Positions 1 through 5,347 of a DNA stretch of 64,000 bases are shown one piece after another. The stretch is taken from contig MWBZ01000005.1 in the NCBI GenBank assembly GCA_002069765.1, positions 42,214-106,213 of the forward strand, read 5' to 3'. Position 1 is the stretch's first letter; every line of letters begins with the position of its first letter. The position numbers were made by a program, and so were the translations under genes. The notes under the pieces are model-generated. The model made no database searches. It saw only the letters and a program-made list of their open reading frames with translations, and was not told where the DNA came from. This DNA comes from a bacterium ADurb.Bin243 (GTDB taxonomy: Bacteria; Muiribacteriota; UBA9980).

Positions 1-1674
1 TTTCCCTTTTATGGCGCCGGATCTTATGAGCTCGCCTATCGAATATGAAAGCTCGATGAAATCGAGTCCTTTTTCGCGGCAGAACCTTAGAAGTTTGGCG
101 GTCAGCTCTATGTCGTATATTTCGTTCATCGCGGCGAAGCCGGCTAAATGCTCGTATTCTATATAAGCGCTTTTCTGTTTTTTATCGTCGAGGTAAATGT
201 TTTTGCACTTTATAACGCAGTTTCTGGCGCAGGAAGCGCCGCATTCGCCCTTGCGTTTTATAACCGAATCGCGCAGAGCGGCCCCCGAAATTTTAGATAC
301 ACCCTGCGATTCGAACCGGGTGAAGAAAGCGAGCGGCAGGGCGCCGGTTTCGTAGAGCGGCATAATCAGCGAGGCCGTTCCGTAGGGCTTTATATGCTCT
401 TTGACGATATGGTTTTTATTTACGGCGTCGGCGAATAAAGCCAGCAGCCTTTCGTATTCATGTTTTTTATCGCCGGCGATATTGTCCCAGAAACCTTCGT
501 GCTCTTTCGTATCTATTACCACCGCGTTGAGTCCGAAATTTTTCATCAATAGCCCGAAGCCGCCTCCGAACTGGATTTCGGGAGAGCCGGAAACGTCGTC
601 GGCCGATACGGTCGCGATGGGAGAGTCGAAAGCCGCCATGGGCGACTGTATAAAATATGAAACGCCTTCGCCGTAAGCGGAGCGTATTCTGGCCGCGGCT
701 TCGTAAACGTTGAGCCCGAGATAGTTTTCGCCGGAAACTATCTGCACGCTGCCGGCGCTTATTTTTAAAAGATAGTGAAAACCTTCGGCCGGGCCTTCGA
801 TTATAAGAGCCGCGACTCCGAGCCTTGCGAGGGCGCGAGCGGCGCGTGAGGGCCGCGAAATAATTTTTACGTGTCCGTTGCGCGGATTTTTAGCCCCGAC
901 GCTGACTATGTCTGACGAGCTCAGATCGCTTGCCGCGAGCGCCGCGGGAGCGATTACCAGCCTGCCGGTTTCCGGCGAATGCAGGCTTTCAGGCGCAGTT
1001 TCCGAACAAATTACGGCGGAGCAAAGGGCGCGGCCGAATAAAAACGAGCGTTCTTTTTCATCCGCTTTTTCAAAAAGCGAAGCAACGGTTTCGAATTTTA
1101 CGCTGCGCTCTTTTAAATTAACCCTGACGATTTTATTTTCGAGATCTTCAGTGAAAGAATAAAGCGCCGAAGACGAACTGACGGAATTTAAGGAAATGAC
1201 CCTGTAGGGTATTTTTTTTAAGCTCAGGTAATGGCAGAGGCTGTCGCGTTCGAGATCGCTTAAAATAAGCTCGTTTACGGCGACGCGGACCGTCGCGCCT
1301 TTTGTCTTCTGGATCAGCGAGGCGATAAGGGCGTATTCGGCCTCGAAAATCTTTAAATCGCCGTCTTTTATGGTAAGGGCGTTGGGCGAGATTTCGATTA
1401 TAGAAGCCCCGGCCGCCGCCGCCGATTTAGCCTGCGCCGATTTTTCCTCCACGGACGAAAGTCCGTATGGAAAATCTATTATAGCGGCAATTTTTATGTT
1501 AGAGCCCTTGAGCTTTTCGGCCGCCTGCCTAATAAGAAAAGGCGGCACCAGTATTTCGACAAAGCCTGAAGCTCTGGCTTCTTCTATGAGATCGCCGAGG
1601 GCTTCGCGGGATACGCCCGCGGCTTTAATAAGAAAATTTGAAAAATCGAGAATTTCCGTTTTTGAAAAAATCAT
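1..1674 (-). CDS. Partial gene (N-terminal ~558 codons; C-terminus lies beyond window position 1). A DeoC-like domain (~190 aa) is fused to an aldehyde:ferredoxin oxidoreductase (AOR, tungsten/molybdopterin family) domain.
   Basis: Minus-strand frame is open from the ATG at 1674 down to position 1 and is missing from the ORF track only because there is no stop in the window. Hand translation gives MIFSKTEILDFSNFLIKAAGVSREALGDLIEEARASGFVEILVPPFLIRQAAEKL...IKIAAIIDFPYGLSS. This aligns with the true DeoC in the next gene ([10 protein letters not shown]...[15 protein letters not shown]...[10 protein letters not shown]). It is followed by IVRVNLKERSVKFETV...IEGPAEGFHYLLK...FGGGFGLLMKNFGLNAVVIDTKE...KPYGTASLIMPLYETGALP...CGASCARNC...EYEHLAGFAAMNEIYDIELTAKLLRFCREKGLDFIELSYSIG. 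These segments match the AOR N-terminal domain and Fe-S cysteine region block by block. The overlapping plus-strand ORFs at 148-1711 are antisense artefacts. Confidence 0.6.
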   Translation of the reverse strand, partial: MIFSKTEILDFSNFLIKAAGVSREALGDLIEEARASGFVEILVPPFLIRQAAEKLKGSNIKIAAIIDFPYGLSSVEEKSAQAKSAAAAGASIIEISPNALTIKDGDLKIFEAEYALIASLIQKTKGATVRVAVNELILSDLERDSLCHYLSLKKIPYRVISLNSVSSSSALYSFTEDLENKIVRVNLKERSVKFETVASLFEKADEKERSFLFGRALCSAVICSETAPESLHSPETGRLVIAPAALAASDLSSSDIVSVGAKNPRNGHVKIISRPSRAARALARLGVAALIIEGPAEGFHYLLKISAGSVQIVSGENYLGLNVYEAAARIRSAYGEGVSYFIQSPMAAFDSPIATVSADDVSGSPEIQFGGGFGLLMKNFGLNAVVIDTKEHEGFWDNIAGDKKHEYERLLALFADAVNKNHIVKEHIKPYGTASLIMPLYETGALPLAFFTRFESQGVSKISGAALRDSVIKRKGECGASCARNCVIKCKNIYLDDKKQKSAYIEYEHLAGFAAMNEIYDIELTAKLLRFCREKGLDFIELSYSIGELIRSGAIKGK

Positions 1675-1823
1675 CGCACATCCCGGATATAATATTTATT
1701 TAAATTTTTAAGCGCCGCCCGTTAGTAAAAATAAGTCCGCGCTAAGGCTTAATTATTTAAAGATTAAGTTTAGCGCGGACTTTGTATTGATTGTGCCGGT
1801 GCCTTTTTCAGGCTCCAGTGTTC

Positions 1824-3317
1824 TTAATAGCCTTTGGAATCGTTAGCCGCGCCTGAAACTATTGCGACGGACGCCGATGCGCCCACGCGCGTCGCGCCGG
1901 CCGCGATCATTTCCTGGGCGGTTTTTAAGTCTCTGACTCCGCCCGACGCTTTGACGCCCATTTCGGGGCCGACGGTTTTTCGCATTAACGCGATGTCGGC
2001 CGCGGTGGCGCCGCCCCCGCCGAAGCCGGTGGAGGTTTTTACGAAGTGCGCGCGGGCGTTTTTGGAGAGCCTGCATGCCGCAGCTTTTTCGTCGTCGGTC
2101 AGAAGGCTGGTTTCGAGTATTACCTTAACCGTTTTTCCGCCGGCCGCCCTGACGACCTGTCTGATGTCTTCTTCTACGAGCTGCAGATTGCCTGATTTAA
2201 GCGCGCCTATGTTAATGACCATGTCTATTTCATCGGCGCCGTCGGCTATCGCCTGGACAGTTTCGCAGGCTTTAGCGCTTGTGGAAGTGGCTCCCAGAGG
2301 GAATCCTACAACGGTGCACACCATTACGCCGCTTCCGGCGAGTTTTTCGGCGCAGTATTTTACCCAGCCGGGGTTTACGCATACCGAGGCGAATTTATAT
2401 TTTGAAGCTTCCGAGCAGAGCTTGTCTATATCGCTCTGTTTTGCGTCAGGCTTTAAAAGCGTATGGTCTATCATTTTAGCGAGACGAGCGTCGAATTTGC
2501 CGCCGAGGGCTTCTACGCCGGGGTTCGATGAAATTCGCGCCGCGCCGTTGTCTTTTATGACGTTTACGGCGTTTTCCCTTTTAACTACGCAATGGCCGCA
2601 GGACATGCAGCCGGCCGGAGCCGTGCATGCGGTCTGAGCCGCCTGGCCGCCGGAATTTCCGGTTAAAGCCGAATAAGGATAAATTTCGCCGCAGGCCCTT
2701 TCTAAAGCGCCGCAGATCTGCGCGAGGGGAACTACCGAAACGCCGAATTCGCTTAATTTGGCTATCTTCTGGTTGATTTCACGCATGATGGCGGGCCTGG
2801 TGTCGCCTATCTGGTTGAGGAGCGGTTCGGCCGAAACTATCAGGGGCTTTTTGGAAATCATGTGCCATACAAGGTAATTACATACCATAGAGTCGGTGTT
2901 GAGGCTCGATATATGCGTGAGGGCCGATAACGACATGAAAGCGAGCACTACCGCGTCGTATTTATTTAAAAATTCGCTGCGGTCGCTGTACTGAAACGAC
3001 GTGTGAATATTGGCCGCTCTGGTTTTTGACGCGAGCTCGTTTTTGTCGAAAACAGCTTTAGCGCCGTCGGATAAAAGTATGTCATATTTCGCGCCGGATA
3101 ATTTTTCAATTTCACGGTAAAAAACTTCGCGCATATTGGATACGCCCGTTAAAACCACGAGCACGTTTGCGCCGCCCTGTTTTAATGAAGGGGCCGTCTG
3201 AGGCTTCGCCGAAGGCTTATTGAACGTGCTCAGAACTTCGCGGGTAATGAGCTCGATTAAATTTTTATTATCCATATCGAATAATTCTCCAACTTCAAAA
3301 ATTTTGCGGAATTTCAT
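1824..3317 (-). CDS. deoC: Encapsulated multidomain deoxyribose-phosphate aldolase. It has an N-terminal amphipathic encapsulation-peptide-like helix and a Rossmann/flavoprotein-like domain. A Cys cluster ([13 protein letters not shown]) follows. The C-terminal domain is a DeoC/DERA aldolase.
   Basis: C-terminal 220 aa read [11 protein letters not shown]...VCVNPGWV...GFPLGATST...[14 protein letters not shown]...ASGGVRD, which is the classic DERA motif set including the Schiff-base Lys in VKTSTGF. N-terminus has [14 protein letters not shown] (amphipathic helix) followed by a [10 protein letters not shown] linker. The middle has [10 protein letters not shown]...[30 protein letters not shown]...[10 protein letters not shown], which resembles flavoprotein/HFCD-type Rossmann domains (tentative). 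Confidence 0.8.
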
Positions 3318-5009: not shown

Positions 5010-5062
5010 GATCGATCCGCCTTTAATTCAAAATATGCTTTCTTTGAATGTTTTGAAGGTTA

Positions 5063-5347
5063 TTATTTGGCGTCTATCTGGGGAATTAATTTTTCGGTTT
5101 CCGCGTGCGGTCTGGGAATAACATGAACATGAAGGAGTTCTCCGACTCTCTGGGCGGCCTGAGCGCCCGCGTCGGTAGCCGCTTTAACCGCGCCTACGTC
5201 GCCTCTTACCATTGCGGTCACCAGAGCGGCGCCGATTTGTACCTGGCCTACGAGAGTTACGTTAGCCGCTTTTACCATGGCGTCCGCGGCTTCTATCGAA
5301 CCGATGAGCCCTTTTGTTTCTACCATGCCTAATGCTTCTTTAACCAT
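5063..5347 (-). CDS. BMC-H shell protein (BMC domain); first gene of the minus-strand BMC operon as seen in this window.
   Basis: [34 protein letters not shown]...[27 protein letters not shown]; 94 aa. Confidence 0.9.

Follow-up and report, generated by a model that had tools for sequence, protein, structure and literature searches.

How would aldehyde be removed in a bacterial microcompartment (BMC) whose locus encodes no aldehyde dehydrogenase (AldDH)? Catabolic microcompartments are currently defined around an acylating AldDH core together with the recycling of CoA and NAD. The question is raised by a locus at positions 1-5347 of a 64,000-nucleotide (nt) stretch of contig MWBZ01000005.1 (GCA_002069765.1), here called the window, from bacterium ADurb.Bin243, which together with UBP16_UBA6123 represents an uncultured anaerobic-digester lineage whose close relatives are labelled Candidatus Wallbacteria by NCBI. 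Coordinates are window positions unless another contig is named, and all genes of the BMC operon lie on the minus strand. The locus encodes hexameric (BMC-H) and pentameric (BMC-P) shell proteins, a deoxyribose-phosphate aldolase (DERA), the ribose-5-phosphate isomerase (RPI) RpiB, and a protein in which a dead DERA-like domain is fused to a domain of the tungsten-type aldehyde:ferredoxin oxidoreductase (AOR) family. The explanation that we favour, at slightly less than even confidence, is that the operon specifies a remodelled metabolosome of the sugar phosphate utilization (SPU) type using deoxyribose 5-phosphate, in which the AOR-like fusion would have taken over aldehyde handling.

Gene content and extent of the operon

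Pfam and NCBIfam scans of positions 1-5347 showed seven co-oriented genes in the order BMC-H, RpiB, BMC-P, BMC-P, BMC-H, DERA and a seventh gene (gene 7) cut by the window edge (Table 1). An earlier sequence-only reading of this stretch had placed all seven correctly, and the two proteins of 94 amino acids (aa) that it had called BMC-H matched PF00936, as its two BMC-P proteins matched PF03319, all far above gathering scores. By the definition of a BMC main locus as a minimum of one gene for BMC-H together with one for BMC-P (Sutter 2021, PMC8217296), this is the main locus of a bacterial microcompartment (metabolosome). The same reading had taken the pair of DeoC and RpiB as the SPU signature, which is in agreement with published work (PMC8217296, PMC11585597) and with the replacement of Cys66 by Asp in RpiB described below. 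Gene 7, the most unusual gene of the locus, had been counted and left undescribed.

SPU loci are defined by pfam01791, pfam02502 and a BMC-P triplet, and all seven subtypes possess an AldDH (Sutter et al. 2021, PMC8217296). Loci without AldDH were dropped from the curated set of Dwyer et al. 2024, where all SPU subtypes possess at least one BMC-Ts (PMC11585597). Because no AldDH or tandem-domain shell protein (BMC-T) is encoded nearby, our locus falls outside the curated SPU definition (AldDH, at least one BMC-Ts, BMC-P triplet; PMC11585597). Two BMC-P genes occur in the operon. ADurb.Bin243 was seen by the published catalogue but left untyped.

The sequence past position 1 was read on the matching contig JAKJHQ010000004.1 of GCA_022703765.1 (L001; 159 kb), found by an exact-protein look-up that also matched several anaerobic-digester metagenome contigs. 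Past position 1 the operon has no more than the remainder of gene 7 and deoB. The whole operon comprises eight genes (BMC-H, RpiB, BMC-P, BMC-P, BMC-H, flavoprotein-fold::DERA (Flav-DERA), dead-DERA::AOR-like and DeoB), all of them intact, and the window holds the 5' six and a half. The deoB product, encoded outside the window, is a phosphopentomutase (NF003766 516 bits, equivalog cut-off 256; TIGR01696 464 bits) without any extension and is surely cytosolic. Unrelated HEAT-repeat, M23 peptidase and TPR genes follow deoB on L001, and neither an alcohol dehydrogenase nor a PduL-type phosphotransacylase was found after gene 7 and deoB on this contig. The sequence-only reading had expected the locus to continue past position 1, as it does, and to hold its missing shell proteins and aldehyde enzymes there, where L001 has none; the idea that the other metabolosome components would be found past that position was rejected on this contig extension. 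The SPU-type assignment is right in kind, but instead of part of a canonical SPU locus this is a compact, remodelled operon that is complete.

A dead aldolase domain fused to an AOR-like domain

The full product of gene 7 has 764 aa, of which the open reading frame (ORF) 1-1674 that runs off the window covers 558 codons. The protein has been deposited as 'Deoxyribose-phosphate aldolase 1 [bacterium ADurb.Bin243]', and fragments from close relatives are labelled Candidatus Wallbacteria. Its N-terminal domain gave a partial match to TIGR00126 (model positions 16-135 of 211; 58 bits, below the cut-off of 117.3) and matched DERAs in the PDB at E=6.5e-10, and AlphaFold2 (AF2) predicted alternating beta/alpha units with model confidence (pLDDT) of 65-84. 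In all six fusion members the Lys167 position is Val, Thr or Ile, Lys137 is replaced by Arg, and there is no Lys201 region and no phosphate loops. Since the Schiff-base lysine is lost and the barrel stops before Lys201 and the phosphate loops, this domain cannot be an aldolase, and the reading of gene 7 as a second active DERA, implied by the NCBI name, was rejected on the same grounds.

The remainder of the protein matched PF02730 (AFOR_N; 72.8 bits, cut-off 29.8) and PF01314 (AFOR_C; 64.2 bits, cut-off 27) on the truncated copy, and was aligned to canonical AORs by hhalign at E=2e-46 and 24% identity. The cluster cysteines C482, C486, C490 and C674 are invariant in the fusion family. Thr243, Glu313, Tyr427 and His448 form the conserved active-site set (numbering of Pyrococcus furiosus AOR, PfAOR; PMC13328260), and the equivalents of the first three are kept and invariant as Thr433, Glu508 and Tyr607, as are, in the two pterin motifs, Asp343 and Asp489-x-x-Gly-x-Cys494. 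The domain resembles the class I tungsten AORs (P. furiosus AOR 1AOR, FOR 1B25, 9G7J; PMC13328260) in its AFOR_N and AFOR_C composition, its four [4Fe-4S] cysteine ligands, the residues just listed and the lack of partner subunit genes. It differs from them in identity (20-24%), in cysteine spacing (Cx3Cx3C and not Cx2Cx3C), in Glu at the position of His448, in a truncated C-terminus, in the N-terminal DERA relic and in being encoded in a BMC operon.

The AFOR family is absent from the hidden Markov model list and the supplementary text of Sutter et al. 2021 (PMC8217296), and the classification paper on tungsten oxidoreductases mentions no microcompartment link or DERA fusion (PMC13328260). 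Literature on microcompartments combined with AOR or tungsten, and on the organism names, gave no description of this arrangement. The fusion encoded by gene 7 is rare and previously undescribed, and its AOR-like part would add to the tungsten oxidoreductase family a clade that is new and isolated.

Distribution and selection

The 764-aa fusion occurs in only 7 clusters among 5.8 billion proteins, and a profile search of the same set with the family alignment added one marginal AOR, 22% identical, as the next AOR relative. Five species representatives among 185,579 genomes (GTDB) and 6 metagenome contigs among 241 million records carry it. The eight-gene module is identical in every fusion-carrying locus (about six species-level lineages), over a range of fusion identity of 49-100%. 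Nei-Gojobori ratios of non-synonymous to synonymous substitution (dN/dS) against the closest unsaturated relative (dS about 0.6-0.7) were 0.09 for the DERA-like domain, 0.08 for AFOR_N and 0.05 for AFOR_C, and ranged from 0.08 to 0.25 in more distant pairs. All three domains of the fusion are under strong purifying selection. The gene order conserved down to 49% identity together with the low dN/dS values therefore indicates that the operon is a selected, stable unit and not debris.

The missing aldehyde half

AldDH, phosphotransacylase (PTAC), PduS and BMC-Ts sequences of the comparator locus L035 were used as queries against the window and the flanks (up to 10 kb on each side) of 16 family loci, about 350 kb in total. 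No homologue of AldDH (PF00171), PTAC, PduS or BMC-T was found in the window or in these flanks, and the same queries recovered all four counterparts in the comparators L028, L035 and L036. The BMC-Ts query matched only the single-domain H1 and H2, and no tandem-BMC ORF was detected in the window or in the flanks of related loci, which extends the remark of the sequence-only reading that no BMC-T gene lies in 1-5347. Tungstate transport, molybdopterin, ferredoxin or further BMC genes were not found in the rest of the window either.

The three comparators are metagenomic loci of the same Flav-DERA type and are canonical, comprising PTAC, BMC-H, BMC-P, AldDH, PduS, BMC-Ts, RpiB, two more BMC-P genes and Flav-DERA, to which TIM, FBPase, class II aldolase or DeoB may be added. 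Synteny of L035 with the window lineage runs through RpiB, a small gene for an encapsulation peptide (EP) and tail, two BMC-P genes, Flav-DERA, one further gene (FBPase in L035), DeoB and an M23 peptidase. The AOR fusion therefore fills a defined slot between DERA and DeoB, and it is specifically the AldDH half that is absent. In comparison to these nearest known relatives, the half with AldDH, PTAC, PduS, BMC-T and the third BMC-P has been lost at this position and a second BMC-H gained, and the EP-tail module has been fused to RpiB and the dead-DERA::AOR-like gene acquired. With L028, L035, L036 and the Flav+DERA operons of Hodarchaeales (PMC12747264) our locus shares a DERA architecture of EP, flavoprotein-fold domain, CxxCGxC motif and DERA. 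The canonical Flav-DERA loci differ in carrying PTAC, AldDH, PduS, BMC-Ts and a third BMC-P, often with TIM, FBPase or class II aldolase, in lacking an AOR-family gene, and in encoding RpiB and the EP-tail module as separate genes.

Among published types the operon is most like SPU7, with which it shares an EP-tagged DERA as signature enzyme, an RPI with Cys66 replaced by Asp, an adjacent BMC-P pair next to DERA, a basal-type BMC-H, a third BMC-P encoded elsewhere, the same candidate phylum and an anaerobic habitat. It differs from SPU loci, SPU7 included, in that no AldDH, PTAC, PduS or BMC-Ts lies in or near it, the encapsulation module of its RPI is C-terminal and not N-terminal, and the dead-DERA::AOR-like fusion and deoB are extra conserved genes. 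RPI and two BMC-H genes within the DERA locus further set it apart from SPU7.

A short metagenome contig (L025) carries a 5'-nucleotidase gene (447-2006; Metallophos and 5_nucleotid_C) between two BMC-P genes and beside Flav-DERA, which is circumstantial support for nucleotide catabolism as an SPU feedstock.

Flav-DERA and RpiB

The sequence-only reading had described the DERA as carrying an N-terminal encapsulation-like helix. Both the aldolase and the helix were recovered: the DERA domain is complete (E=4e-83 to solved DERAs), its Schiff-base lysine stands in the expected context FVKTSTG, and equivalents of Asp102, Lys137, Lys167 and Lys201 are all present in the alignment. An extension consisting of the helix only was rejected, as the N-terminal extension is about 260 aa long and comprises the EP, a linker, a folded UbiX/EpiD-like flavoprotein-fold domain and a four-cysteine motif. 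The AF2 model of this region has a helix at residues 2-19, a low-confidence linker and a fold domain with pLDDT of about 90, for which the best Foldseek matches were the flavoproteins UbiX, EpiD and PPC decarboxylase (Dfp; E=2e-8, probability 1.0). PF02441 scored 21.5 bits on this domain, just below the cut-off of 22.7, and 28-36 bits in distant relatives. On the predicted structure the domain is confirmed as an HFCD/UbiX-type flavoprotein fold, in which this lineage has 'S-L-S-A-L-T-H' at the motif that is 'S-L-N-T-L-x-K' in relatives.

The Pro/Ala/Ser-rich linker varies in length and sequence across the family and the helix is invariant; the EP and the cysteine motif are conserved throughout the family as well as in about 10 fusion clusters that are distant from it. 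The N-terminal region of DERA had no match in a profile search of the 5.8-billion-protein set, and an exhaustive representative search gave 19 relatives. Since about 10 distant clusters share the architecture and a 2025 preprint noted 'Flav+DERA' in Hodarchaeales operons (PMC12747264), the Flav-DERA fusion is not new. The first in-frame ATG at 3317 was rejected as its start, because the 14 residues gained from it are not conserved and the start codon of relatives corresponds to the ATG at 3275.

RpiB was also correctly named by the sequence-only reading, and in addition was found to possess an 85-aa C-terminal extension made up of an encapsulation-like helix, a variable linker and a 40-aa tail. 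In its isomerase domain Asp65 replaces the catalytic Cys66 (VDGAG aligned to ICGTG or LCGTG in five solved RpiBs, including E. coli 1NN4) and the equivalent of His99 is kept (REHNN aligned to RQHND). Replacement of Cys66 by Asp with His99 kept has been reported in all SPU RPIs (Dwyer et al. 2024, PMC11585597), which are nearly inactive on ribose 5-phosphate, and RPI and DERA form a 1:1 complex (PMC11585597). DERA at its N-terminus and RpiB at its C-terminus carry encapsulation-type extensions with a putative role in targeting.

In L035 the helix-plus-tail module is a separate 138-aa gene (L035 7280-7696) directly after rpiB, which comprises an amphipathic helix, a linker and a 'GTIVTPLARDTAREKGV' tail and is homologous to window positions 4335-4556. 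In the window lineage the EP-tail module has been fused onto the C-terminus of RpiB. The RpiB tail ('KGT-x-I/V-T-x-LA-x-D-x-A-x-x-x-G-I') resembles the C-termini of the BMC-associated proteins PduM and TIGR02536 'eut_hyp', and the helix-tail module common to the tails of PduM and eut_hyp may be a general packaging or shell-binding element. A flavoprotein (PF02441) fold with an N-terminal EP is likewise shared with eut_hyp, as described for SPU4; eut_hyp is one 210-aa protein, whereas here the fold domain is on DERA and the tail on RpiB.

Proposed mechanism and alternative explanations

In the mechanism that we favour, cytosolic DeoB would convert deoxyribose 1-phosphate to deoxyribose 5-phosphate, and RpiB, devoid of its catalytic cysteine, would chiefly bind DERA and be its partner in packaging, as has been shown for the RPI of SPU6. 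The dead DERA-like domain, imitating the contacts of DERA with RPI or with DERA, would bring the AOR-family fusion into the core, and the fusion would oxidise acetaldehyde directly to acetate via a pterin/[4Fe-4S] site. With acetaldehyde oxidised directly, CoA and NAD would not have to be recycled, and PTAC, alcohol dehydrogenase and PduS/PduT would hence not be needed. Replacement of the AldDH/PTAC/PduS/PduT half by one AOR-family fusion would show that the aldehyde-removal module is exchangeable; a dead copy of a signature enzyme may serve as an adaptor domain for recruitment, and for engineered compartments an aldehyde sink independent of CoA and NAD, inside a minimal shell of four genes, would be an attractive option. 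In its strictest form, the proposal is that of a true AldDH-free metabolosome in which a divergent W- or Mo-pterin AOR-family enzyme is pulled into the lumen by a dead aldolase copy and turns DERA-derived acetaldehyde into acetate, which we regard as rather unlikely. If true, such an organelle would need neither CoA nor NAD and no recycling by PTAC, PduS or PduT, it would be the first microcompartment of any kind with a core built on a ferredoxin-type aldehyde oxidoreductase, and 'signature-enzyme mimicry' would be established as a new principle of cargo recruitment.

Several observations weigh against a takeover of aldehyde handling by the fusion. No electron outlet was found in the operon, that is, no PduS/PduT, BMC-T or ferredoxin gene and, in the alignment, no pore cysteine in either BMC-H, and the locus raises the question of how electrons would exit a shell without an Fe-S shell protein. 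PfAOR His448 aligns to an invariant Glu628 in the fusion family. Arg76, Asn93-x-Gly-Gly and Arg182, which we take to be the pterin-phosphate/Mg-site residues of the 1AOR structure, are kept by all seven canonical AORs aligned, and their positions read Ile, Ser-Arg-Pro-Ser and Phe/Gln in the fusion family, in an alignment that may be shifted at 24% identity. The equivalents of Asp338 and Arg444 are also replaced in the fusion family and kept in the aligned canonical AORs. Because the equivalents of His448, Arg76, Asn93-x-Gly-Gly, Arg182 and Arg444 are lost, pterin binding and catalysis by the AOR-like domain are uncertain. The 764-aa fusion itself shows no recognisable EP, its AF2 model from a 6-sequence alignment (mean pLDDT 44) is too poor for fold search or active-site analysis, and a terminator-like hairpin parts the DERA gene from the fusion gene in this strain. 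An unlinked AldDH/PTAC module elsewhere in these genomes is possible, the searches having covered the window and the flanks. The window also holds an acetate kinase gene (60355-61572, plus strand; PF00871 528 bits), 55 kb from the BMC operon, from which it follows that the organism makes acetyl phosphate by some route, and this bears on a PTAC encoded elsewhere. Lastly, SPU7 (Wallbacteria, Riflebacteria, Cloacimonetes) is split into a locus that keeps AldDH, PTAC and RPI and a satellite locus with DERA and two BMC-P genes (Sutter et al. 2021, PMC8217296).

The alternative that survives best is a split SPU locus of the SPU7 kind, which we consider somewhat improbable, and which stays alive because SPU7 of Wallbacteria is naturally split. 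The operon would then be the DERA half. AldDH, PTAC and perhaps PduS/PduT would be encoded elsewhere, possibly in the vicinity of the third BMC-P, and would process acetaldehyde in the lumen. DeoB and the AOR-like fusion would be accessory enzymes under common regulation and probably located in the cytosol, where the fusion might, for instance, take up acetaldehyde that escapes or oxidise glyceraldehyde 3-phosphate like GAPOR. The acetate kinase, the unextended DeoB, the fusion without an EP of its own, the lack of an electron outlet in the operon and the hairpin 5' of the fusion gene in this strain are all consistent with this explanation, as is a third BMC-P elsewhere in ADurb.Bin243 (97 aa), listed as 'SPUx (sat) (omitted)' in the BMC-P tree of the Sutter 2021 catalogue. 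By the definition of that catalogue, satellite ('sat') means no BMC-H within 12 ORFs (PMC8217296), and AldDH adjoins BMC-H and BMC-P in all three comparator loci, so that this third BMC-P does not lie in a canonical AldDH half. Unlike the SPU7 satellite, our operon contains both BMC-H genes and RPI, the catalogue did not type the organism as SPU7, and a dead DERA domain held at a dN/dS of 0.09 is hard to explain in a free cytosolic oxidoreductase. If an AldDH is encoded elsewhere, the locus would still represent a well-defined split or remodelled SPU subtype together with a new isolated tungsten-oxidoreductase clade.

Alternatively, and in our view quite unlikely, the 764-aa protein may be inert in both halves and act as a core-organising adaptor, like CcmM or the defunct AldDH copies of GRM1, that binds DERA or RPI via the DERA relic and possibly holds a structural or electron-relay [4Fe-4S] cluster. 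Loss of the Schiff-base lysine and of the last third of the barrel, loss of the His448, Arg76, Arg182 and Asn93-Gly-Gly equivalents, and the strong purifying selection that still acts on all domains can be interpreted in this way, and non-functional enzymes in BMC assembly and the almost inactive, DERA-binding SPU RPI are precedents (PMC11585597). With the CcmM gamma-CA domain, the defunct EP-bearing GRM1 AldDH and the SPU6 RPI, the DERA relic has in common that it is derived from an enzyme, no longer has a key catalytic residue, is maintained by selection and has its gene next to that of the enzyme that it resembles; it differs in being fused to a second large, possibly active redox domain. 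An inert protein is harder to reconcile with the invariance of three of the four active-site residues, of the Asp and Cys positions of both pterin motifs and of all four cluster cysteines, a scaffold domain of 590 aa would be unusually costly, and the organelle would be left without a luminal aldehyde consumer unless the AldDH half were also encoded elsewhere.

A decaying or non-functional SPU remnant that has lost its AldDH half, the least credible explanation by far and already close to refuted, would account for a locus without AldDH, PTAC, PduS, BMC-T and third BMC-P, but all eight genes are intact, gene order is kept across lineages in which the fusions share just 49% identity, dN/dS does not exceed about 0.1 in the unsaturated comparison with the closest relative and lies at 0.08-0.25 in more distant pairs, and new fusions particular to the lineage, of RpiB to the EP-tail module and of the dead DERA to AOR, have become fixed.

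Shell genes, regulatory signals and neighbouring genes

Table 1. Features of the BMC operon and its regulatory signals in the window (positions on the 64,000-nt stretch).
Feature	Position	Strand	Evidence
Candidate sigma-70-like promoter (TTGACT, 17-nt spacer, TATAAT), 5' of first BMC-H gene	5423..5451	-	Consensus scan only, 11/12 matches
BMC-H protein H1, 94 aa, KAAN and PRPH interface motifs	5063..5347	-	PF00936 94.4 bits; in all family loci
SPU-type RpiB, 228 aa	4323..5009	-	PF02502 179 bits; TIGR01120 157 bits
RpiB isomerase domain, aa 1-144	4578-5009	-	
RpiB encapsulation-like amphipathic helix QQLIATIVERVMAAL	4512-4556	-	Hydrophobic moment 0.63, >95th percentile within protein
RpiB C-terminal PduM/eut_hyp-like tail	4335-4457	-	TIGR02536 C-terminus match E=1e-4; weak PduM match
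BMC-P protein P1, 95 aa	4039..4326	-	PF03319 90.4 bits
BMC-P protein P2, 96 aa, 33% identical to P1	3710..4000	-	PF03319 82.8 bits
BMC-H protein H2, 94 aa, 69% identical to H1, PSPH motif and GGGY pore loop	3345..3629	-	PF00936 102.6 bits
Flav-DERA, 483 aa from conserved ATG 3275	1824..3275	-	ORF 1824-3317; TIGR00126 equivalog 288.5 bits (cut-off 117.3)
DERA encapsulation peptide	3222-3275	-	Invariant amphipathic helix in family
UbiX/EpiD-fold domain of DERA fusion	about 2691-3167	-	AF2 and Foldseek
Cx5CxxCxxC motif of DERA fusion	2589-2627	-	
Catalytic DERA domain	1857-2486	-	Schiff-base lysine in FVKTSTG, 2025-2045
Terminator/attenuator candidate, 13-bp GC-rich hairpin then U-tract	1726..1782	-	In 149-nt DERA-AOR spacer
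Truncated DERA-like domain of gene 7, aa 1-175 of 764	1150..1674	-	Barrel strands 1-6 only
AOR-family domain of gene 7 (tungsten-type), aa 180-558 in window, to 764 beyond	1..1137	-	
C482, C486, C490 of AOR-like domain	205-231	-	

The start of P1 was set at the ATG at 4326 from gene calls and the family alignment, giving a 4-nt overlap with the rpiB stop, and the longer ORF from the TTG at 4470 inside rpiB was rejected in favour of this family-conserved start. The promoter candidate sits in a 218-nt divergent intergenic region. The hairpin folds at -40.4 kcal/mol (z=-3.8), a value that none of 200 shuffled sequences reached, and is not conserved, the spacer between DERA and the fusion gene measuring 4-210 nt in other lineages; acting as an attenuator, it would possibly reduce expression of the fusion and deoB relative to the shell and DERA. 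A scan of positions 1-7000 for riboswitches and known RNAs gave one sub-threshold match only, within the DERA coding region.

Divergently upstream of the operon lie genes for a 203-aa protein without Pfam or NCBIfam match (5566-6177, plus strand) and for an isochorismatase-family protein with a hydrophobic N-terminus (6217-6864, plus strand; PF00857 96 bits). This pair is kept at that position in most lineages, and the 203-aa gene is found nearby also in the most divergent ones (L009, L017); a link of the pair to nucleobase or nucleotide catabolism is possible. The following gene (6892-8523, plus strand), present only in this strain (L001, L002) and absent at the same position in other lineages, encodes a protein of 543 aa whose N-terminus resembles a signal peptide and which weakly matches the nucleoside-phosphorylase superfamily (PNP_UDP_1, E=2e-4, aa 337-397). 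At the other end, a 703-aa HEAT-repeat protein with NblB/CpcE-like repeats (L001 15293-17404) follows deoB in 4 of 5 lineages with the M23 peptidase and TPR genes next to it, and these genes probably form a separate lineage-syntenic unit.

The rest of the window encodes pst genes, ABC-2 exporters, two-component systems, flagellar rings, pseudopilin cassettes and ackA. The pstSCAB-phoU phosphate-uptake operon (14794-19730, plus strand) is ordinary. Two paralogous three-gene cassettes (46574-50631 and 52115-56060, minus strand; 46-58% identical) encode proteins of about 255, 170 and 900 aa, which have hydrophobic N-termini like those of prepilins and match nothing in Pfam. The cassettes flank an ECF sigma factor/FecR pair (50672-52008). 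The flagellar genes flgA, flgH and flgI (39197-42311, plus strand) indicate a diderm flagellated organism.

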